DNA from: Parachlamydiaceae bacterium
Lineage (GTDB): Bacteria; Chlamydiota; Chlamydiia; Chlamydiales; Parachlamydiaceae
Length of the DNA: 64,000 nucleotides
Assembly (NCBI GenBank): GCA_044326545.1
Contig: JBIRBM010000005.1
Span: 13,457-77,456, forward strand
Direction: 5' to 3'
Shown here piece after piece: positions 16,253 to 56,053 of the stretch. Numbering within the stretch: the stretch's first letter is position 1; the number at the start of each line of letters is the position of its first letter. Position numbers and translations under genes: made by a program. Under the pieces are notes generated by a model. That model had not been told where the DNA came from, made no database searches, and saw nothing but the letters and a program-made list of their open reading frames with translations.

Positions 16253-17377
16253 ATGATCATTTTAAATCGCCTTTCAATAAAGATCTTGTTGCTTATTACA
16301 CTATCCTTCTTGATTTTAATCGGAATGGGATTATTTGTTTATCATCATTTCATAAAATGGGGCGTATACGATATTGAACATGTCATAGAAGCTGTTGAAA
16401 AGAATGGGCTAAATTTGCGGTTTGCTGCAGATGAGCTTAGAAATGATCCAAAAATTGTTGGGATTGCGATTAAGCAAAATGGGGCAGCATTAGAATTTGC
16501 TTCGTCGGTTCTTAAGAATGACTCAGAAATTGTCAAGCATGCTGTTTCCCAAAATGGTTGGGAGCTTCAGTATGCCTCTGCAAATCTTCAAAATCATCCA
16601 GAGATTGTCAGTCTTGCAATTGAGAAAAATGGATATGCCTTGAAATTTGCTTCTCTTGCTTTGCGTAATGATCCTGACATTGTCAAGTTAGCTGTTAAAA
16701 AAAATGGCTGGGCATTAGAATACGCCTCCGCGGAAAGGCGTGATGACCCTGACATTGTGAAGTTGGCGATTCAACAAGATGGTCTTGCGCTTGAATTTGC
16801 CTCGGATAAATTTAAAAATCATCGCGAAATTGTTACATTAGCCGTTCAGCAAAATGGACTCGCATTAGACTATGCGAGTAAAGAGCTTAAAAGAGATCCG
16901 GAAATTGTGAAATTAGCGCTTAGACAAAATGGACAAGCTTTAGTCGTCGTCCCGGATGAGGATCAAACCCGAGAGATTGTGATGGTTGCGATTGAGCAAG
17001 ATGGAAAAGCTTTGCGTTATGTTGGAAGAGAATTATTAAAAGATCCTGAAATTGTTCGAATCGCCGTGCAAACTTATGGCCAAGCTTTAAAGTTTACGAA
17101 TGATTCAGAGCTTCAAAATGATCGCGAGATTGTGATGTTTGCTGTGCAGCAGGACGGGCGAGCTCTTCGTTTTCTCTTAGATGAACTGCAAAATGATCGC
17201 GAGATTGTCTCGTTGGCCGTTCAACAAAATGGACTGGCTCTTAAATATGCCTCAAACGATTTGAGAAATGACCGTCAAATAGTTAAAATAGCCATTCAAC
17301 AAAATCCCTCAGCGGTTGAATTTGCCTCAGATGAGTTGAGGCGGGATTTAGAAATCGTTCAATTGCTCAATCATTAG
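16253..17377 (+). CDS. Membrane-anchored DUF4116 repeat protein
   Basis: An N-terminal TM segment (ILLLITLSFLILIGMGLFVY) is followed by about 13 tandem 25-aa units of type NDPEIVKLAVQQNGLALEYAS.ELR. Confidence 0.75.
   Translation: MIILNRLSIKILLLITLSFLILIGMGLFVYHHFIKWGVYDIEHVIEAVEKNGLNLRFAADELRNDPKIVGIAIKQNGAALEFASSVLKNDSEIVKHAVSQNGWELQYASANLQNHPEIVSLAIEKNGYALKFASLALRNDPDIVKLAVKKNGWALEYASAERRDDPDIVKLAIQQDGLALEFASDKFKNHREIVTLAVQQNGLALDYASKELKRDPEIVKLALRQNGQALVVVPDEDQTREIVMVAIEQDGKALRYVGRELLKDPEIVRIAVQTYGQALKFTNDSELQNDREIVMFAVQQDGRALRFLLDELQNDREIVSLAVQQNGLALKYASNDLRNDRQIVKIAIQQNPSAVEFASDELRRDLEIVQLLNH
16376..17368 (+). repeat. Tandem 75-bp coding repeats (about 13 units) of the DUF4116 gene
   Basis: The 25-aa periodicity is seen directly in translation: ...NG.AL.[FY]AS..L.ND.EIV..A... 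Units are diverged, not identical. Confidence 0.7.
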
Positions 17378-47626: not shown

Positions 47627-47746
47627 CCTAGTGCTCTGTCTCTGTCAAGCTTAAATTTTCGAATTAGACTTGCCTGAAAGCTCTCGTGATTGAGAGATCG
47701 CAAATTCAATCGGAAAATTTAAACTTGACAGAGACAGAGCATTAGG
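47627..47746. mobile_element. Family E palindromic element (120 bp)
   Basis: Arms CCTAGTGCTCTGTCTCTGTCAAGCTTAAATTTTCGAATT and AATTCAATCGGAAAATTTAAACTTGACAGAGACAGAGCATTAGG. Single copy in this window. Confidence 0.7.
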
Positions 47747-47854
47747 GCGTGTCATCAATTGCTCATCGCCTCTATTCAAGATGATTTCTGAAGCGATGCG
47801 ACCACCCGCTTGGAAAGAACTTGAATAAATTTATGATCAATTGATGACACGCCT
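47744..47854. mobile_element. Family D MITE-like element (D2, 111 bp), inverted relative to D1
   Basis: AGGGCGTGTCATCAATTGCTCATCGCCTCTATTCAAGATGATTTCTGAAGCGATGCGACCACCCGCTTGGAAAGAACTTGAATAAA...GATCAATTGATGACACGCCT. This matches the reverse complement of D1 with few differences. Confidence 0.8.
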
Positions 47855-47882
47855 TAAGCTCATCTATTGCTCTTGAGTCATT

Positions 47883-48227
47883 TTAACGGACATTAAAATA
47901 GAACCCTGATCCATCGACTCCTGCACTAGCGCCGTGTGCATTAGGTTCAGCGTAATAATGTTGGCCATAAGGATGGTTGTTGTCGTAAATGTAACCGGCA
48001 TTGTCATCATAGCCGTTGCCGTAGTAACCATTGCTATAGTAGTTGTTGTCGCCGTAGAAATCAGTTCTTCCACCGCCCCACCAACCGCCATTTCCGCCCC
48101 AAGCAGCTCGGCCGTTATCATAAGCTCCCCATCTTCCCGAAGATGCTTCTAACTGATTGTAACCGACTGAAAATAAGCTTGCAAAGAGGCAAGAACCTAA
48201 AATTAAAGACTTAAAAGAACGAGACAT
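47883..48227 (-). CDS. Secreted Gly/Tyr/Asn/Trp-rich low-complexity protein (paralogue 1)
   Basis: Signal peptide MSRSFKSLILGSCLFASLFSVG, then GGNGGWWGGG...YYSNGYYGNGYDDN..., ending GSGFYFNVR. RBS AAGGAGGA upstream (rc of 48230-48237). Confidence 0.6.
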   Translation of the reverse strand: MSRSFKSLILGSCLFASLFSVGYNQLEASSGRWGAYDNGRAAWGGNGGWWGGGRTDFYGDNNYYSNGYYGNGYDDNAGYIYDNNHPYGQHYYAEPNAHGASAGVDGSGFYFNVR

Positions 48228-48291
48228 AGATCCTCCTTATAATTGAATCTAATTTAGCGCCTAATCCCGCTCTTGAGTGGTTGGGATTGGC

Positions 48292-48561
48292 TTATTGCCT
48301 AAATTTCGCTTTCTCTTTCTTACCGAAGCATGAAAGCTCCCGAAGATTGATAAATTCCGAGGACCCACATTTTTTATAGGGTGATCTCAGATCGGTATCT
48401 CTCCATCCGAGATGAAGGATGCAATCTTCAATCCTTGAGGCTTTAACAGAGCTTAAAAGAAAAAAACAAAACACAGGCTCATATTGATGAGATGTTTTTG
48501 CAAAATTTTCAATGAAATCATTGTTGATTTTGCAATCAAATAATTTCTTAGCATATTTCAT
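48292..48561 (-). CDS. Hypothetical small protein between the two Gly-rich genes
   Basis: 89-aa ORF on the same strand as its neighbours. No motif or clear RBS; it may be spurious. Confidence 0.2.
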   Translation of the reverse strand: MKYAKKLFDCKINNDFIENFAKTSHQYEPVFCFFLLSSVKASRIEDCILHLGWRDTDLRSPYKKCGSSEFINLRELSCFGKKEKAKFRQ

Positions 48562-48752
48562 AAAAAAAATAACCTTAAAAGTTTCTTAAGTGAGGAGAAA
48601 AAAAAGAAGAAATCAATCGATCTTTCTAGAAAATCAGAGAGTTAAATCATGATTCAATTTAGAGAAAAACACGAAATAAGAGGAGAAAAAGAGGGTGAAT
48701 AACAGAAGGGTGGGGCCAAGCTAAAAAGCCTTGGCCCTCATGAAGAGGATGA

Positions 48753-49166
48753 TTACCTCACGTTATAATAAACACCTGAATCAGCATCATAATAGTAGTT
48801 ACTATACGGATATGTATTATCATAGTAGGGAGAAGCCGATCCTTGATAATAGGAAGGAGCTCCATAGACTCCTAGGCCGTAACCTAAACCATAAGCTGCA
48901 CCATAACCTCGATAATAATTGCCTCCCCAATGATTGCGATCCCAATCGCCGTGATGCCCTCCATTCCAGCCGTGTCCGCCACCCCAATCACCATGATGCC
49001 CTCCTCCGCTCCATTCGCTCCCATGTCCGCCACCACCGCCATGTCCGCCACCACCGCCATGTCCACCACCACCGCCACGAGCTGACAGGGTATTAAAATT
49101 GAGCGGTAACAAAAACAGTGCTAACAAAAAAGCACTTGAAATGAGATATTTTAAAGAAAGCGTCAT
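48753..49166 (-). CDS. Secreted Gly/His/Tyr-rich low-complexity protein (paralogue 2)
   Basis: Signal peptide MTLSLKYLISSAFLLALFLLPL, then (GGGGHG)x3 and GGGHHGDWGGGHGWNGGHHGDW, then a Tyr/Gly-rich part ending DSGVYYNVR. RBS AGGAGGG upstream (rc of 49171-49177). Confidence 0.6.
   Translation of the reverse strand: MTLSLKYLISSAFLLALFLLPLNFNTLSARGGGGGHGGGGGHGGGGGHGSEWSGGGHHGDWGGGHGWNGGHHGDWDRNHWGGNYYRGYGAAYGLGYGLGVYGAPSYYQGSASPYYDNTYPYSNYYYDADSGVYYNVR
49021..49074 (-). repeat. Three tandem 18-bp units (CCATGTCCGCCACCACCG on + strand) encoding GGGGHG
   Basis: Units at 49021-49038, 49039-49056 and 49057-49074. The third differs by one base. Confidence 0.85.
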
Positions 49167-49508
49167 AAACCCTCCTTACGAAAAGGTCATAGTGAATAGA
49201 ACCAAGAACACTCCACTCCTTTCCCTCGCCTCCCTTTTCTATCACTTGGTTTCATGATTAAGCTTAAGAGCTTTTTTTCACATTCAAGTGACCTCCCAGG
49301 GGGTGGGGGAGAAGGAGTGGAGATGGAAAATCACAATAGGGCTCATATTAAAAAATATGAAGGCCTTTGTGCTTTTCTATTTGCGAGATCTTTCAAACCC
49401 GCGACACAGATGCTTCATGCAAAATACGTGCCGGCTTATCTGGATTTATGGCTTTTTTCTTTGATGTTTTTCAACGAAAAGGGGATGTAAAAAACAACAG
49501 CACCCCCA

Positions 49509-49605
49509 GAGACTGTCTTAAAGCCTCACTTTACGCAACGAGAGCGCGATTTGGACTGAAGCGAAAACTCGCGCTGTGCTTAAGGTGAGGTTTTAAGACA
49601 GTCTC
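49509..49605. repeat. Family A repeat with extra outer stem (A9)
   Basis: GAGACTGTCTTAAAGCCTCACTTTACGCAACGAGAGCGCGATTTGG...CTCGCGCTGTGCTTAAGGTGAGGTTTTAAGACAGTCTC. Confidence 0.8.
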
Positions 49606-49956
49606 TTAGAACCTCATGACAGATGTTAAGAAGGTTCTTATGTGCACCAAACATCCAGTATAAATCAAATCACTCATACATTAAAACCTCCTCTATTTTT
49701 ATTTTATTTATTTTGATTTAGTTTGTCAAATCATTTTTTTAATTTTTATGTTTTATTTTTTGAGTTTTTAACTCAGCTTAAACGATAAATCACACTCTTC
49801 GTGTGTCAGGTCTGTTAATCAGCATTGCCTCTATAAAATCGTTGTCAAATTCGTAACCTATGTGTTAAAGTTGGCTTATTTTTTAAACAACAAGCGTCGA
49901 TATTAATAAAAATTCAATTTTATTTCTTTGCTTGTTATCATAGACCCATTCGATTA

Positions 49957-50153: not shown

Positions 50154-51536
50154 ATGCAAAAAGCAAGAGAGCATTGGAGTTCCCGTTTAGGATTTATCTT
50201 AGCGGCCGCTGGGTCTGCAATCGGGTTAGGAACATTATGGAAGTTTCCTTATGTCACAGGGGAAAATGGGGGAGGGCTTTTTGTCCTTATGTACATGCTG
50301 TGCACTTTCTTAATTGGAATCCCTGTTTTTATTGCTGAGCTTATTTTGGGGAGAAAGGTTCAAAGGGGAGCTGTTGGAATATTTATCAATTTAACGGATA
50401 ATTCCACCCTTTGGAAAGCCATTGGCTGGATGGGTGTTGCCTCCTCTTTTTTAATCATGTCTTTTTACAGTGTTTTAGCAGGTTGGGGACTCAATTATGT
50501 CTTTATGTCTTTAAGTCAATTTTATGTTGATCTGAGCGCAGAAGAAATCTCCCACGTCTTCGATATTCTGTCTTCTTCTGCTGATATTACATTATTTTGG
50601 CATTTCATCTTTACCATTTTAACAGGAGCTGTTGTTTATCAGGGGATTCGTCAAGGAATTGAGTATTGGAGCAAATTCATGATGTTCGGACTTTTATTCC
50701 TTTTAGTTGCCATGTGCTTATATGCCTTTACGCTAGAAGGGTTTAGGCAAGGGGCTTATTTTATTCTCTACCCTGATGTTTCAAAATTTAAAGCCTCAGC
50801 CGCTCTGCAAGCTTTGGGATTGTCCTTCTTTACCTTAAGTCTTGGGCAAGGCATTATGTTGACATATGGAAGCTATATGAAGCGTAGCGATGATATTCCT
50901 AAAACCTCCATTATTATTGGGGTGATGACGGTTATTATTGCTGTTTTTGCTGGTTTAATGATTTTCCCTATTATTTTCACCTTTGGTTTTTCTCCGGAGT
51001 CGGGGCCGGGATTAGTGATGAAGACATTGCCTGTTTTATTTGCTCAGCTCCCCGGTGCCCTTTTTATCTCGACAAGTTTTTTCATTTTATTTGTGTTTGC
51101 CGGTTTAACATCTGCTGTTGCTTTGATTGAAGTGGTGGCAGCGAATTTTACCGATTTATTCGGTTGGTCAAGACACAAGGCAGTTGCCATCACCTGTGTT
51201 TCGTGTTTTATTTTTGGAATTCCCAGTGCTTTATCCAACACAAATACGTTGTTTGCCAATTGGTCTGCCATCTACGGCAAAAATTTTTTTGAGACCGTCA
51301 ATGATATTGTCTCTTTATGGCTACTCCCGATCAGTGGATTAATGACGGCGATTTTTACCGGTTGGGTGATAGATAAAAAGATGATTTATGAAGAATTTAA
51401 TGCAGGGACAACGCTTGGTTGGTTATGGAAGCCGTGGAGGTTTTTCCTTCGCTGGGTTGCACCCTTGGCAATTATCTTTATTATGCTCCAACAAAGTGGA
51501 ATGATTGATATTGATGCTTATTTTATCCAAAGCTGA
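50154..51536 (+). CDS. Neurotransmitter:sodium symporter (NSS/SNF) family transporter
   Basis: WSSRLGFILAAAGSAIGLGTLWKFPY signature at the N terminus; about 11-12 TM segments. Confidence 0.88.
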   Translation: MQKAREHWSSRLGFILAAAGSAIGLGTLWKFPYVTGENGGGLFVLMYMLCTFLIGIPVFIAELILGRKVQRGAVGIFINLTDNSTLWKAIGWMGVASSFLIMSFYSVLAGWGLNYVFMSLSQFYVDLSAEEISHVFDILSSSADITLFWHFIFTILTGAVVYQGIRQGIEYWSKFMMFGLLFLLVAMCLYAFTLEGFRQGAYFILYPDVSKFKASAALQALGLSFFTLSLGQGIMLTYGSYMKRSDDIPKTSIIIGVMTVIIAVFAGLMIFPIIFTFGFSPESGPGLVMKTLPVLFAQLPGALFISTSFFILFVFAGLTSAVALIEVVAANFTDLFGWSRHKAVAITCVSCFIFGIPSALSNTNTLFANWSAIYGKNFFETVNDIVSLWLLPISGLMTAIFTGWVIDKKMIYEEFNAGTTLGWLWKPWRFFLRWVAPLAIIFIMLQQSGMIDIDAYFIQS

Positions 51537-52201: not shown

Positions 52202-53806
52202 CTATCGATTTAGCTTACCTTTAAGCTTACCTAATATTGAATCAGAAAAATCGACCCATTCTCCGGTTTCATTCCCTAGAGGACCATAAATACAACACAG
52301 CTGTAGACTATTCAATGAAGGAGATGTTCTTGCCTGTTTCATCCGTTGTTGCCGCAGCTTTCCTATTGATATTGAGGGATCCTGTATGACGAGTTGTTTA
52401 GCTGAGATCACAAGTTCAAGGAGTCTTAATATTTGATCAAACTCATCATCCAAGGAAAATTTAGCAGAGTTTTTAAGTGCAATCAATCCTGCATCATAAG
52501 GAGTAATCATCTGCAATGGGTCATTGGAAGGAGCTAATGAAAGACGCATCACTTGCTGCAAAAATTTCGTTCCTCGCTTCATTCGATCAATAGCCGCATC
52601 AGGGATCCCGTGGTCTGCCATGATTTTAGCCTCTTTTTCAAGATCGATTTCTAATAATTGTTCAGCAATTTTATCACTCCACTTTTCAGTCATTTGAGGA
52701 AGAAATAAGTGCTCTAATTTCAATAAATCTGCAGCTGATGATGAAAAGCATAATCCATGATCGATCATAAAAAGATTGAGAGGACCTTCCTCTTTTTCTG
52801 GCACTAAAAGATTTCCTAGATGACGGTCGATATTACCAAAGCGTATATCAAAGATTAAACTTGCCTGGACACTTTCGTTTGATAAGACATTTAATCGATG
52901 AGCCTTTTCTGGATTTAAGCTCAAGACAGATAATCCTACGCAATTTTTTTGAAAAATTTGTGCAGATCCCACCTTCCCATTTAATTCGATATAAGTCGTA
53001 TAAGGAATCGGATAAAGACGTTGCTTGTTTAATAAACAGGCAACTTTTTCTCTTATGGCGCTTTCTCCGGCTCGAATGCCTGCTGCGACTCCTTCTTTTT
53101 CTTCATCTTTGGGTTTAAAAATCAATATTTTTTCAAGATTCTCATTGGTAATAAAATAAGAGCCATTGATTCCTGCACTGGAATTATCTCCTCCTGTTGG
53201 AATGACGGCGTCTGGCCCCAATACTTCGACTCCTTTAACAGCCTCTCCTAGTTGTTTGAAAATAAAGGCGGGATGGTAATCATCCTGTTGATTAGAGGCG
53301 TATTTTTTCAACGGTGTTTCAAATAACAATTTAAAAACATGTTGAATTTCGTTTGAGGTGATGACCATCGGCGAAGATAAGCGAAGATTGAGACGATCAA
53401 AAATGATGTTAGCTATCGATTCTAACGGTTTGTTTGCAATTTCTTCAACGATTTGTTCTCCAAAACAGCTAATCGATAATTCCAGTAAAGAGGAAAAGTC
53501 TTGAGCATTCGTTGAATCGGCTTTTTCTTCCAATTGTGAGGAGGTGATACCAACAGATAAAATAGTGGTGGCGATAACATTTAATTTATCTAAATTTTCA
53601 CTCATTTTTAAAGCTTCATTGTCTGTTGATGTTTTTCTCATTTCCAAATTTACTGTGCTTGGAGATTGAGAATTAAGGAGAATCGCTTCAGTTATAATAT
53701 GGCTATAAGGGTCTACGGAATTGTTTTTTCCAGAATCGGATGTTGAGTCCAAGTGAGAATAGTTACCAGCCATTTGCTCTTGATTAAATGTGCTAATATT
53801 ATTCAT
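52202..53806 (-). CDS. Eukaryotic type II PI4-kinase-like (PI3/PI4-kinase superfamily) protein; candidate effector
   Basis: GSYFITNENLEKILIFKPKDEE, VGSAQIFQKN, FGNIDRHLGNLLV (DRHxxN catalytic loop) and FMIDHGLCF (metal-binding Asp). The N-terminal ~200 aa are Ser/Asn-rich with no signal peptide. ATG 53804-53806 is preferred over GTG 53839. Confidence 0.7.
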   Translation of the reverse strand: MNNISTFNQEQMAGNYSHLDSTSDSGKNNSVDPYSHIITEAILLNSQSPSTVNLEMRKTSTDNEALKMSENLDKLNVIATTILSVGITSSQLEEKADSTNAQDFSSLLELSISCFGEQIVEEIANKPLESIANIIFDRLNLRLSSPMVITSNEIQHVFKLLFETPLKKYASNQQDDYHPAFIFKQLGEAVKGVEVLGPDAVIPTGGDNSSAGINGSYFITNENLEKILIFKPKDEEKEGVAAGIRAGESAIREKVACLLNKQRLYPIPYTTYIELNGKVGSAQIFQKNCVGLSVLSLNPEKAHRLNVLSNESVQASLIFDIRFGNIDRHLGNLLVPEKEEGPLNLFMIDHGLCFSSSAADLLKLEHLFLPQMTEKWSDKIAEQLLEIDLEKEAKIMADHGIPDAAIDRMKRGTKFLQQVMRLSLAPSNDPLQMITPYDAGLIALKNSAKFSLDDEFDQILRLLELVISAKQLVIQDPSISIGKLRQQRMKQARTSPSLNSLQLCCIYGPLGNETGEWVDFSDSILGKLKGKLNR

Positions 53807-53994
53807 AATAAAAACTTTTTTTGTTTTTTGTCTAGTCACAATTTAATTATATTTTTTATTTAATTTATGTTCAATATTTTTGATTGTTGTTTTTAAATAT
53901 AAGAAAATTCATAGAGTAAATTTTTTTATTGTTATTTGAATGTTTATTTCATAATTAAATTAAAAAAAGATCCTGTATCCAAAGTTTGAATGAT

Positions 53995-54092
53995 ATTAGA
54001 CTTCTTCGGAAACTTCATTGACTTGCTAAAACCGCCATTTTTGGCATCTTTTTTGTAAAATTTTTCGACCGTATGCACGCATACGCTCTCAA
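53995..54092. repeat. Family C left half (C2); direct repeat of 54899-54996
   Basis: 98 bp, identical to 54899-54996 except one C/T difference (54076 vs 54980). It lacks the right arm. Confidence 0.85.
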
Positions 54093-54372: not shown

Positions 54373-54837
54373 TTATTCCCACACGGGTTTCTTGGCCCCG
54401 TCATAAGGTTTAGCTAATCCCTTTGAAATCAGTTCTTCAGCTAAATCTATTCCATCTATATAGACATCTGCAAGAATGCGGAAATATTTATCTCGTTGCA
54501 TATTCGTCAATTCGATGATGTTGGCATGATTGAGTCGATCAGCAACATAATCTCGAGCTTCAATCGCCATTTTTTTTATCTTTTCTCTTTTATCTGTTAT
54601 CTCCGGTGTGTCGATTTTAGCAATCCGAATGGAAATTTTCTCCCCTATCAAGGGATGAACATCAAAAATATCGACGATGAATGTGTCTCCATCATGAACG
54701 CGGCACACTTTGTCAACCTGCAGTGCCCCATAACAGCGAGCAGCTTCAAGGTTTTCAAAACAGAAGAGGAAATGAAGGGCTAAACATGCTGAATAAAAAG
54801 GCAATGGTTTAATTGAAAAGGGGGAGGTTGTTTTCAT
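54373..54837 (-). CDS. Secreted staphylococcal-nuclease-like (SNase/thermonuclease) protein
   Basis: Signal peptide (PLPFYSACLALHFLFCFENLEA), then VHDGDTF, IRIAKIDTPE and RDKYFRILADVYIDG...GLAKPY, matching SNase catalytic/OB-fold blocks. Confidence 0.8.
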   Translation of the reverse strand: MKTTSPFSIKPLPFYSACLALHFLFCFENLEAARCYGALQVDKVCRVHDGDTFIVDIFDVHPLIGEKISIRIAKIDTPEITDKREKIKKMAIEARDYVADRLNHANIIELTNMQRDKYFRILADVYIDGIDLAEELISKGLAKPYDGAKKPVWE

Positions 54838-54898: not shown

Positions 54899-55063
54899 AT
54901 TAGACTTCTTCGGAAACTTCATTGACTTGCTAAAACCGCCATTTTTGGCATCTTTTTTGTAAAATTTTTCGACCGTATGTACGCATACGCTCTCAACATT
55001 TTCAAAACAATCTGCTCAAAAAGGGCAATTTTTTCAAGCAAAGCAAGTTTCTCAAGAAGTCTA
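54899..55063. mobile_element. Family C MITE-like element, long form (C3, about 163 bp)
   Basis: Left arm TAGACTTCTTCGGAAACTTCATTGACTTGCTAAAA; right arm TTTTCAAGCAAAGCAAGTTTCTCAAGAAGTCTA. Shares the core GCCATTTTTGGCATCTTTTT with C1. Confidence 0.8.
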
Positions 55064-55123: not shown

Positions 55124-56053
55124 TTAAAGAAAAAAATTATCAACAAAACTTTGAGCGTCAAAAGGCTGCAGGTCATCGATTTGTTCGCCTGTTCCAATAA
55201 ATTTAATCGGGAGGCCTAATTCACGTTGAATGGCCACGACAATTCCCCCTTTGGCTGTACCATCGAGCTTAGTGAGAATAATTCCGGTCAGGGGAGTGAA
55301 TTGATGGAAATTCTTTGCTTGTTCAATTGCATTTTGACCAGTTGTTGCATCAAGCACTAGGAGCGTCTCATGCGGACCGCTTAAAGCCGCTTTTCGGCAA
55401 GATCGCTTGATTTTTTCAAGTTCTTGCATAAGAGGGATTTTTGTGTGAAGGCGTCCGGCGGTATCGATAAGGACGACATCGCATTGGCGAGCTTTAGCTG
55501 CTTGCACTGCATCGAATGCCACTGCTGCGGGATCGCTTTTAGAGGTTCCTTTGACAATGTCTATATCCAGACGTTGTGCCCACGTTTCAAGTTGTTCAAT
55601 TGCAGCTGCGCGGAAGGTGTCAGCTGCACCAACAAGCACTTTTTTTCCGTTTTGCTTAAAGAGGTTCGAAAGTTTTGCAACAGACGTTGTTTTGCCATTG
55701 CCGTTGACTCCAACAATCAGGATAATCAAAGGGGTTTGACCCTCAGGTTGTGAGGCTAAACCCGAAGGATTGCGGTTAAGCTCTGTGGTAATATGCGAAC
55801 GCAAAGCATCAAGGTATTGTGCTGTTTTAAAAGAGGGGTTTTCTTTATGAAGTTCGCGGATTTTATGTGTCAGTTCAATCGATGTTTGGACTCCAAAATC
55901 AGCTTCATACAAAAGCTGTTCGAATTGTTCCAACATACTCTCATCAATTTTTCCTTGGAAAAGAGAGTGAAGCTTATCGCTAAAGAGTGATCGTGCCCGA
56001 GAAAGGGCTGATTTAACTTTCGAGTAACTTGATTTAAAAAATTGCAAAACCAT
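55124..56053 (-). CDS. ftsY: Signal recognition particle receptor FtsY
   Basis: GVNGNGKTTS (G1), DTAGR (G3), TKLDGTAKGG (G4), preceded by an NG-domain N helix bundle. Confidence 0.9.
   Translation of the reverse strand: MVLQFFKSSYSKVKSALSRARSLFSDKLHSLFQGKIDESMLEQFEQLLYEADFGVQTSIELTHKIRELHKENPSFKTAQYLDALRSHITTELNRNPSGLASQPEGQTPLIILIVGVNGNGKTTSVAKLSNLFKQNGKKVLVGAADTFRAAAIEQLETWAQRLDIDIVKGTSKSDPAAVAFDAVQAAKARQCDVVLIDTAGRLHTKIPLMQELEKIKRSCRKAALSGPHETLLVLDATTGQNAIEQAKNFHQFTPLTGIILTKLDGTAKGGIVVAIQRELGLPIKFIGTGEQIDDLQPFDAQSFVDNFFL

Follow-up and report, generated by a model that had tools for sequence, protein, structure and literature searches.

In chlamydiae outside the genus Chlamydia, which lack the major outer membrane protein of the pathogens, the building of the resistant infectious particle is poorly known, and it is here that the proteins described below may matter. 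Small secreted proteins that form amyloids or coats and occur as several paralogues include the chaplins of Streptomyces and CsgA of curli, while ZraP of Escherichia coli, a periplasmic zinc-binding member of the Spy/CpxP family, has an HGGHG-like mature N-terminus and a folded helical LTXXQ core. Gly/His-rich proteins are likewise known, for example the shepherins, which are antimicrobial peptides, and the jaw proteins of marine worms, which are hardened by Zn or Cu. Only two promoters are bound by sigma-54 in C. trachomatis, both of genes of unknown function, and this binding is seen from 28 h only, at the conversion of reticulate bodies to elementary bodies (PMC12282069). Here, we analysed a stretch of 64,000 nucleotides (nt) from a Parachlamydiaceae bacterium (GCA_044326545.1, contig JBIRBM010000005.1, positions 13,457-77,456 of the forward strand; hereafter the window) together with 25 fetched comparison loci or contigs (L001-L025). 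The window holds a pair of open reading frames (ORFs) of 114 and 137 amino acids (aa), named P1 and P2, and their sequences indicate a chlamydia-specific family of small, intrinsically disordered proteins with predicted Sec export. P2-type genes are preceded by a predicted sigma-54 promoter element, which is a new regulatory finding.

The sigma-54 regulon of Chlamydia (ctl0021/ct652.1 and ctl0052/ct683; PMC12282069, PMC7482065) and the P2-type genes have in common the same kind of -24/-12 element (TGGCA-N6-TTGC), placed about equally far before the start. However, Ctl0021 is a small protein without signal peptide or low complexity and Ctl0052 is a TPR protein, and neither is a homologue of P1 or P2; the element is missing from P1-type genes, and the Gly/His protein is not discussed in PMC12282069. 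OmcA and OmcB of the disulfide-cross-linked outer membrane complex are also chlamydial, exported and late components of the envelope, and a third of the P1-type relatives are Cys-rich, but homology is absent, and OmcA is a lipoprotein whereas P1 and P2 have neither a conserved lipobox nor Cys in their mature parts. The chaplins and CsgA resemble the pair as clustered, small, Sec-exported paralogues with short beta-prone segments that could nucleate assembly; P1 and P2 differ in a composition that is not hydrophobic, in having no Q/N repeat units and in the lack of secretion or nucleator genes nearby. ZraP shares Sec export and a His/Gly tract at the mature start, but its LTXXQ core is found in no family member. 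The shepherins and worm jaw proteins have similar GGH/GHG-type repeats mixed with Tyr and Trp without being homologous, and they differ in being eukaryotic and either cut into short peptides or much richer in His.

Secreted glycine-rich proteins (GRPs) of eukaryotes, such as the tick cement GRP that phase-separates and ages (PMC11794139), have in common with P1 and P2 a signal peptide, a predicted disordered Gly/aromatic sequence and the presence of Arg with little Lys. By analogy, a composition of this kind would be expected to self-associate. The chlamydial proteins are bacterial, directed to the periplasm, anionic and short (85-110 mature residues), and they have motifs of their own, namely AWGGNGGWWG and a C-terminal motif. 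The initial annotation of this DNA had noted a likeness in composition to eukaryotic glycine-rich proteins; no sequence homology goes with it. The likeness of P1 and P2 to glycine-rich structural proteins, Gly/His peptides and ZraP tails is compositional only, and that to chlamydial late envelope proteins is biological only.

That the two same-strand ORFs, each with a ribosome-binding site and a signal peptide, are real genes had been proposed beforehand, and the proposal stood: their exact limits on the minus strand were recovered, with AAGGAGG ahead of each start (Table 1). The P1 sequence exactly matches NCBI MFI0434813.1, annotated as hypothetical in a Parachlamydiaceae metagenome-assembled genome (MAG), and the same pair occurs on six contigs from independent sequencing runs. 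Gene callers report the 137-aa and 114-aa genes on the strain contigs and nothing in between; an 89-aa ORF in the spacer (48292-48561) is unconserved and is called on none of them. Orthologues in related genomes preserve frame, start, stop and motifs. In comparison with orthologues from four other genomes, the ratio of nonsynonymous to synonymous substitution rates (dN/dS) in the coding frame was 0.09-0.14 for P1 and 0.12-0.21 for P2, values that are rough, with partly saturated dS and the approximate statistics of low-complexity alignments. The strain contig L001 differs from the window by a 9-base-pair (bp) in-frame insertion at 49069, one Arg>Gly change in P2 and one synonymous change in P1.

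These data bear on the alternative that P1 and P2 are non-genes, either chance ORFs in a spacer of odd composition or the mirror of an opposite-strand gene. Low-complexity DNA does give long ORFs here, in several frames and on both strands, and a large protein collection contains no P2-type proteins. Against this stand the strong ribosome-binding sites, the signal peptides, the conserved starts and stops, 77 homologues carrying invariant motifs, in-frame dN/dS of 0.09-0.21 and the in-frame indel, while frame-shifted orthologues were not seen. The non-gene explanation is effectively refuted and in our judgement has next to no chance of being correct; by all sequence signs, P1 and P2 are real genes for proteins predicted to be exported.

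Both N-termini have a basic n-region, a hydrophobic core of 12-18 residues and a small-residue cleavage site (NQLEA/SS in P1 and NTLSA/RG in P2). A core with a 12-residue Kyte-Doolittle maximum >1.6 is present in 76 of the 77 P1-type proteins that make up our alignment and in all 12 Gly/His-type proteins, with Lys or Arg ahead of the core in 70/77 and 12/12; otherwise, assignment to Sec and signal peptidase I (SPase I) relied on inspection of the sequences. Mature P1 lacks Cys, Lys, Leu and Met, contains only three His, and has 23% Gly, 15% Tyr, 13% Asn and 5% Trp. Mature P2, of 108 residues, lacks Cys, Phe, Ile, Lys and Met and has 35% Gly, 16% Tyr, 5% Trp and 8% His, the His occurring in the clusters GGGGGH and GHHGDW. 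The background, taken from the long ORFs of the window, is 6.7% Gly, 3.2% Tyr, 2.7% His, 1.3% Trp and 5.5% Lys. Both mature proteins are mildly anionic. Throughout the family, aromatic residues make up 21-22% and Gly 17-37%, Arg is kept, Lys falls to 0-0.6% (5.5% in the background) and the median net charge is -4/-5. Within the window, P1 and P2 are the sole ORFs with this ending or composition. Among the strings quoted in the initial annotation, the low-complexity stretches and the endings DGSGFYFNVR and DSGVYYNVR were recovered, while the repeat reads GGGGGH three times, the quoted GGGGHG being the same repeat in another register. The suggestion that this repeat can change length agrees with the natural insertion in L001; Tandem Repeats Finder places its limits at 49021-49077 (previously 49021-49074).

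A single-sequence search with P1 found five orthologues of 54-77% identity. Profile searches gave 30 matches at E<=1e-3 among 1.84 billion cluster representatives and 78 matches among 5.8 billion proteins, all of the latter without a name or labelled 'hypothetical'. The decapeptide AWGGNGGWWG is invariant in the 77-sequence alignment except at residues 8 and 10: some members have S or Y at residue 8 in place of the first W of WW, and at least 90% retain the final G. It lies in a wider block, ER-x-AWGGNGGWWG-x4-DWYG-x-YG-[TW]-PE. The C-terminal block, [DE]-x-[VI]-[DPN]-G-[AG]-[AG]-[LIVF]-Y-[FLIW]-N-[VILF]-[RK], in short form V-[DP]-G-x-G-L-Y-F-N-V-R, falls within the last 30 residues in 71 of the 77 and is followed by 0-8 polar residues without a hydrophobic segment. 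In a scan of 648 ORFs from all fetched loci, this motif was restricted to array members and never occurred on other passenger domains. The earlier claim of a shared C-terminal motif therefore survives as regards conservation across many genomes and fails as regards a strictly terminal position, since the motif forms the exact C-terminus in 36/77 only and about half of the Gly/His-type proteins are without it. The middle region is variable, being Tyr/Gly/Asn-rich in the clade of the window and carrying at least 4 mature Cys in 23/77; six P1-type members have CxxC-x(4-9)-CxxC, and four Cys-rich members match the Pfam 'double zinc ribbon' (DZR) weakly, at E 0.0045, below threshold.

P1-type proteins show 30-53% identity to that of the window where GlmS of the same contigs shows 71-81%, which marks the family as fast-evolving by sequence comparison. 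Named sources of relatives are Parachlamydiaceae or Chlamydiae MAGs only, and the window itself holds typical chlamydial genes, such as that of the TLC ATP/ADP translocase. A scan of viral contigs found no relatives; a scan of GTDB genomes gave two confirmable loci and, by that route, no cultured named species. From these comparisons, the P1 family appears to be an undescribed one, whose strongest conserved element is AWGGNGGWWG, which the initial annotation had not picked out as such.

Searches seeded with P2 gave few matches, one reason being that the protein collection lacks Gly/His-type proteins. P2, five orthologues read from DNA (L009, L013, L015, L023 and L024) and the Protochlamydia amoebophila homologue PC_RS11495 are all absent from it as exact sequences, so the class is under-represented and its distribution is underestimated by protein-database searches. 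Read from the DNA, Gly/His-type genes lie directly upstream of P1-type genes in L009, L013, L015, L021, L023 and L024, and the database matches P0008 and P0011 hold the same position, downstream of ftsY. The signal peptide of this type is strikingly conserved (..FFLALF(F/L)LP-x-x-FN-x-[LV]-[ST]-A) and is followed by a (G)nH tract of variable length, a stretch rich in GDW/GW and a Tyr-rich tail; about half of the relatives end in G-x-G-[VLA]-Y-[FY]-[ND]-V-R. The His content of the relatives is 7-20%.

The paralogy of P1 and P2, proposed in the initial annotation, can be accepted from sequence. BLASTP aligns their C-termini (E 0.001), the Gly/His-type protein P0044 is hit by the P1 profile along its whole length (E 1e-4), and hhalign aligns the two family profiles over the signal peptide and the C-terminal module with a probability of 99.1%, an approximate figure that is inflated by signal peptides and biased composition and to that extent counts against the reading. 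The members appear to share one architecture, in which a conserved signal peptide is followed by a variable low-complexity middle and, near the C-terminus, by a beta-prone motif, ..YYYD-x-G-x-G-[LVF]-Y-[FY]-N-V-R. In composition, the middle is Gly/Tyr/Asn-rich, Gly/His-rich or, in some relatives, CxxC-rich.

One homologue belongs to a cultured strain. The N-terminal 40 residues of PC_RS11495 of P. amoebophila UWE25 match the Gly/His profile with 98.4% probability (E 9e-15), and the protein has the same layout of signal peptide, Gly/His tract and GYGLG/Tyr-rich tail (MYRTLKLRVCGLIFLTLFLLPFNFVNAKGGHGHGGGHHH...GYGLGGFGLGYGLGYHGSSYYY...NFYFKVPLK). BLASTP gives no alignment of P2 with PC_RS11495, because composition correction strips the low-complexity part; the likeness, in the signal peptide and the start of the tract, is visible by profile comparison only. 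A further exported low-complexity protein of the clade, rich in Cys and Tyr, is PNK_RS13020 of P. naegleriophila, in which CC-R-Y-V-P-[QK]-Y-Y repeats come after a Gly/Tyr-rich start and which lies near a sigma-54-like site on the opposite strand (PMC12282069 Table S1).

Aligned upstream regions of the Gly/His-type genes share TTGGCAT-N5-TTGCA, the sigma-54 -24/-12 consensus with canonical spacing. The exact string TGGCA-N6-TTGC has eight matches in the 25 loci, seven of which lie 30-96 nt upstream of Gly/His-type genes on the coding strand (two each in L012 and L015 and one each in L009, L023 and L024); copies with one mismatch lie 125 nt upstream in L013 and 86 nt upstream in L020. With a published narrow matrix built on the ctl0021 promoters and a cut-off of 10, three sites score above the cut-off and four at 8.5-9.1. 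The element of the window is the same variant as the L020 copy and aligns with it. A match with at most one mismatch has a chance of about 0.02 in a given 320-nt stretch (shuffle mean 6.8 per 128,000 strand positions). Between the element and the ribosome-binding site, about 45 nt before the start codon, lies a further leader motif, AGGGAAAG-GAGTGG, which is found in the window (about 49210-49235) and in L009, L015, L023 and L024. A predicted intergenic sigma-54 promoter was also listed before PC_RS11495 by Rizvi et al. 2025 (Table S1, PMC12282069), and Francke et al. 2011 (PMC3162934) argue that sigma-54 controls the bacterial exterior in general.

Several points weigh against a sigma-54 promoter in the window. 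Its element has a mismatch at a conserved T and lies 251 nt upstream, as against 30-125 nt elsewhere, and on the narrow chlamydial matrix it scores 2.8 because of the first base. The distance can be ascribed to about 150 nt extra in the leader of the window P2, an apparent insertion that is not in other leaders and past which the shared motif realigns. Upstream of P1-type genes there is no sigma-54 element, and a search of 13 such regions for shared k-mers and for sigma-28-like or sigma-66-like sites found nothing conserved beyond the ribosome-binding site. Neither rpoN nor the gene of the activator CtcC lies within the 64-kb window, and Rubidus, a relative in the Parachlamydiaceae, has been reported to lack rpoN. 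The P2-type genes as a class carry the predicted element, and P2 may be switched on by a sigma factor used late, when infectious forms are made; the developmental-form idea of the initial annotation thereby receives some indirect backing in the case of P2.

Table 1. Coordinates of the P1-P2 locus in the window
Feature	Position	Strand	Basis
P1 gene, 114 aa, Gly/Tyr/Asn/Trp-rich, predicted exported	47883..48227	minus	ORF; equals NCBI MFI0434813.1
P1 Shine-Dalgarno AAGGAGG, 4 nt before ATG	48232..48238	minus	kept in orthologous upstream regions
P1 signal peptide MSRSFKSLILGSCLFASLFSVGYNQLEA	48144..48227	minus	SPase I cut after LEA inferred
P1 motif AWGGNGGWWG	48075..48104	minus	found in 77/77 P1-type proteins
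P1 C-terminal motif VDGSGFYFNVR	47886..47918	minus	71/77 members within last 30 aa
P2 gene, 137 aa, Gly/His/Tyr/Trp-rich paralogue, predicted exported	48753..49166	minus	ORF; called on strain contigs; positional orthologues
P2 Shine-Dalgarno AAGGAGG, 4 nt before ATG	49171..49177	minus	sequence
P2 signal peptide MTLSLKYLISSAFLLALFLLPLNFNTLSA	49080..49166	minus	sequence; strongly conserved in Gly/His-type proteins and P. amoebophila PC_RS11495
P2 Gly/His/Trp tract (RGGGGGH x3 ... GHHGDWDRNHWGG), 9 His	48921..49079	minus	length varies widely among orthologues
18-bp tandem repeat encoding (GGGGGH)n	49021..49077	minus	Tandem Repeats Finder: period 18, 3.2 copies, 97% matches
P2 C-terminal module YYYDADSGVYYNVR, low-confidence beta-hairpin	48756..48797	minus	aligns with P1 C-terminus (BLASTP, hhalign)
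GC-rich hairpin, candidate terminator, 16 nt past P2 stop, no adjacent T-run	48713..48737	minus	sequence
Sigma-54-type -24/-12 element CGGCACGTATTTTGCA, 251 nt before P2 start	49418..49433	minus	one mismatch to TGGCA-N6-TTGCA

AlphaFold predicted little structure in either protein. For P1, modelled with the 77-sequence alignment, the mean predicted local distance difference test score (pLDDT) was 54 and the only helix, at residues 4-20, is the signal peptide; for P2 the mean pLDDT was 47, with a single helix at 2-30 and two strands (124-127 and 132-135) at low pLDDT, which form a low-confidence C-terminal hairpin of YYYD, a turn and VYYN. On these models, P1 and P2 are best seen as disordered chains that are dense in aromatics, have Gly, Asn and Ser as spacers, contain Arg and hardly any Lys, and include a single short segment prone to beta structure. 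The view that no characterised bacterial family has this layout was upheld: searches of Pfam-A and NCBIfam gave no match for P1 or P2 at E<=1, no member of the 77 + 12 set reached a family threshold, and sequence searches of the PDB, with profile and single sequence, gave nothing better than E 0.6. No described chlamydial Gly/Tyr/His-rich family was found in the literature; one homologue is listed in a published supplementary table, and the family itself is not described. By sequence, the pair is best filed as a chlamydia-restricted variant of exported low-complexity structural or metal-binding proteins.

Other assignments were considered and rejected. An OmcA-like lipoprotein, which needs a conserved lipobox (L-x-x-C) where the signal peptide ends, does not fit, as the signal-peptide Cys of P1 sits within the hydrophobic core and is missing from P0004 and other orthologues, and P2 has no Cys. 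An outer-membrane beta-barrel with the beta-signal of the beta-barrel assembly machinery (BAM) would end in an aromatic residue, usually Phe, on an amphipathic strand and not in Arg or Lys, with 2-8 extra residues in some members, nor have a mature part of 55-160 aa that is predicted to be disordered. Chlamydial Pmp proteins, with their multiple GGA[ILV] and FxxN repeats and autotransporter beta-domain, are excluded by the lack of a Pfam match and by length, some members having a single GGAL/GAGL-Y-F-N string, and Spy/CpxP/ZraP by the lack of a Pfam match and of any helix past the signal peptide in the AlphaFold models. RTX proteins of type I secretion have tandem GGxGxDxUx nonapeptides and an uncleaved C-terminal signal, whereas each protein here shows a single D-G-x-G-hydrophobic string and begins with a Sec signal; an EF-hand-like calcium site was set aside as well. 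The motif is followed by no hydrophobic segment and occurs on array members only, unlike the PEP-CTERM, GlyGly-CTERM and LPXTG sorting signals, in which a transmembrane helix and a basic tail come next, and a polyglycine-II helix bundle is not predicted by AlphaFold.

The array sits in an old and syntenic slot. The arrangement ftsY, one to six same-strand family genes, a Trp/Tyr permease gene (tyrP), glmS and glmM, with the last three facing the array, is found in L010, L011, L012, L013/14, L015/16, L019, L024 and L025, one extra gene sometimes sitting between the permease gene and glmS; the array is convergent with the Trp_Tyr_perm gene in these loci and in L009. Beyond ftsY lie sucC/sucD and an M50 peptidase gene. 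Of the six consecutive genes in L015 (4352-8354), three are of the Gly/His-rich type; the others are a P1-type gene with Cys, a Tyr/Ser-rich one and one that carries YSHDGWNNAPGG repeats. L024 has a four-gene array at 3072-5360, and the arrays of both loci include types that are not in the window, namely Tyr/Ser-rich proteins ending in ..SSGVFFGE or ..SVGVFLN and a protein of 267 aa in which YSHDGWNNAPGG is repeated about ten times. The window retains ftsY (55124-56053), sucC, the M50 peptidase gene, glmM and glmS and differs in two respects. An insertion of about 5 kb, which parts ftsY from P2 in this genome only, carries genes for an SNF transporter, a PI3/PI4-kinase-like protein and a secreted nuclease, and the site has no permease gene and, instead, two long hairpins (47627-47857) between the convergent glmS and P1. 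Neither metal transporter or sensor genes nor dedicated secretion or nucleator genes were found near the pair.

Further features surround the pair. The first of the two hairpins has 47-nt arms that are 85% complementary (47627-47673/47700-47746) and the second has 25-nt arms that are 92% complementary (47742-47766/47833-47857); all six short-read contigs of the strain break at 47800, the centre of the second. Rfam gave sub-threshold matches only, to generic long-hairpin microRNA models, on the flanking hairpins. The spacer ahead of the P2 promoter region contains another hairpin, at 49508-49606, with 30-nt arms (90% complementary) and a 39-nt loop. The secreted staphylococcal-nuclease-like gene (54373-54837, minus strand) is bracketed by a direct repeat of about 95 bp (53997-54090 and 54901-54994), which suggests that this gene was inserted into, or duplicated with, the spacer downstream of ftsY; each copy holds TGGCATCTTTTTTGTA on the plus strand, which is sigma-54-like with GT for GC. 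The minus strand at 52202-53839 encodes a eukaryote-like candidate effector of 545 aa that has the catalytic domain of a PI3/PI4-kinase (Pfam E 4e-11), and the adjoining gene at 50154-51536 encodes the SNF-family transporter. Elsewhere in the window, a 374-aa protein consists of nine DUF4116 repeats (16253-17377; Pfam E 3e-122).

As to function, our tentative reading is that the pair encodes late-expressed, self-associating matrix proteins of the envelope or periplasm that may also bind metal, a chain of steps that as a whole we hold to be less likely than not. P2 would probably be made late, as sigma-54 binding in Chlamydia is late only, and would reach the periplasm or envelope by export. 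Aromatic and His residues with Gly between them would drive its self-association there, possibly strengthened by divalent metal on the His, and the outcome would be a cohesive envelope matrix or a buffer layer of the infectious form. The common C-terminal motif may serve as an assembly or docking handle. P1 would share export and handle, and its invariant decapeptide implies a specific binding partner rather than generic stickiness. Predicted disorder and composition fit a sticker-and-spacer protein, and the Cys-rich relatives are in keeping with the way in which chlamydiae cross-link proteins of the envelope. Four points tell against the matrix: the late timing is extrapolated from C. trachomatis, a distant relative; the Sec signal places P1 and P2 in the periplasm only; the aromatics are spaced no more evenly than in shuffles (mean z -0.4 and +0.1), where liquid-like condensates would call for even spacing; and the His positions are not conserved residue by residue.

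The His residues can also be read as those of a soluble periplasmic metal buffer or metallochaperone, in which Zn, Cu or Ni would be bound by the Gly/His tract of P2 and by CxxC pairs in some relatives, protecting the bacterium from metal poisoning or starvation in the amoebal vacuole, no structural role being required. Nine clustered His among 108 mature residues of P2 and 7-20% His in its relatives agree with this, as do the six P1-type relatives with paired CxxC, the four weak zinc-ribbon matches (E 0.0045) and the HGGHG-type tract with which mature E. coli ZraP also begins. However, P1 has three His and no mature Cys, AWGGNGGWWG and the C-terminal motif are not metal ligands, His positions and tract lengths are unconserved, no metal transporter or sensor lies nearby, and CxxC pairs in an oxidising periplasm more likely form disulfides; we consider a metal buffer unlikely. 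The tandem arrays, on the other hand, together with length variation and rapid divergence (30-53% identity where GlmS has 71-81%), are typical of interface proteins, and the pair could encode secreted peptides against the amoebal host or microbial competitors. AWGGNGGWWG would then be a ligand, for example a GW/WG-type mimic or a glycan binder, to which the specific partner implied by its invariance would correspond, and the Gly/His proteins would act like eukaryotic Gly/His-rich antimicrobial peptides; Lys is nearly absent, and the composition is like that of Gly/His- and Trp-rich antimicrobial peptides covered by a review (PMC6017362). But the signal is for Sec and not type III secretion, with no route over the outer or inclusion membrane, the mature proteins are anionic (median -4/-5), unlike membrane-active peptides, dN/dS is well below 1 with no whole-gene sign of diversifying selection, and viral contigs hold no relatives, so that this use, too, is improbable, to much the same degree.

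The neighbourhood of tyrP points to yet another explanation, in which ORFs rich in Tyr and Trp codons act as a translational sensor or sink for aromatic amino acids and the protein product is secondary. Tyr and Trp make up about 20% of the mature residues (4.5% in the background), and the array is convergent with the Trp_Tyr_perm gene at many loci. Yet the family genes are convergent with tyrP rather than upstream of it, the window has the pair and no tyrP at the site, and what is conserved is the protein (signal peptide, invariant motifs, dN/dS 0.1-0.2). The adjacency may also be inherited gene order, given that C. trachomatis has the same glmM-glmS-tyrP-ftsY neighbourhood. A sensor of this kind is very unlikely.

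Whichever function applies, a conserved, array-forming family of exported low-complexity proteins, partly behind sigma-54 elements, is a candidate output for that regulator, and it shows in a bacterium a kind of composition that has so far been examined chiefly in structural and phase-separating proteins of eukaryotes. Earlier proteomics and transcriptomics may have overlooked the family, as the PC_RS11495 tag was assigned late and the Gly/His members are missing from the protein collection. On the matrix reading, a bolder and unlikely extension is that in environmental chlamydiae the envelope of the infectious form is partly built from sigma-54-controlled, disordered Gly/aromatic/His-rich proteins that condense into an extracytoplasmic gel or cross-linked layer. 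If this were true, such a gel layer would replace or supplement the Cys-cross-linked outer membrane complex of pathogenic Chlamydia, an extracytoplasmic protein condensate would serve as structural material, and sigma-54 would gain a concrete structural output.

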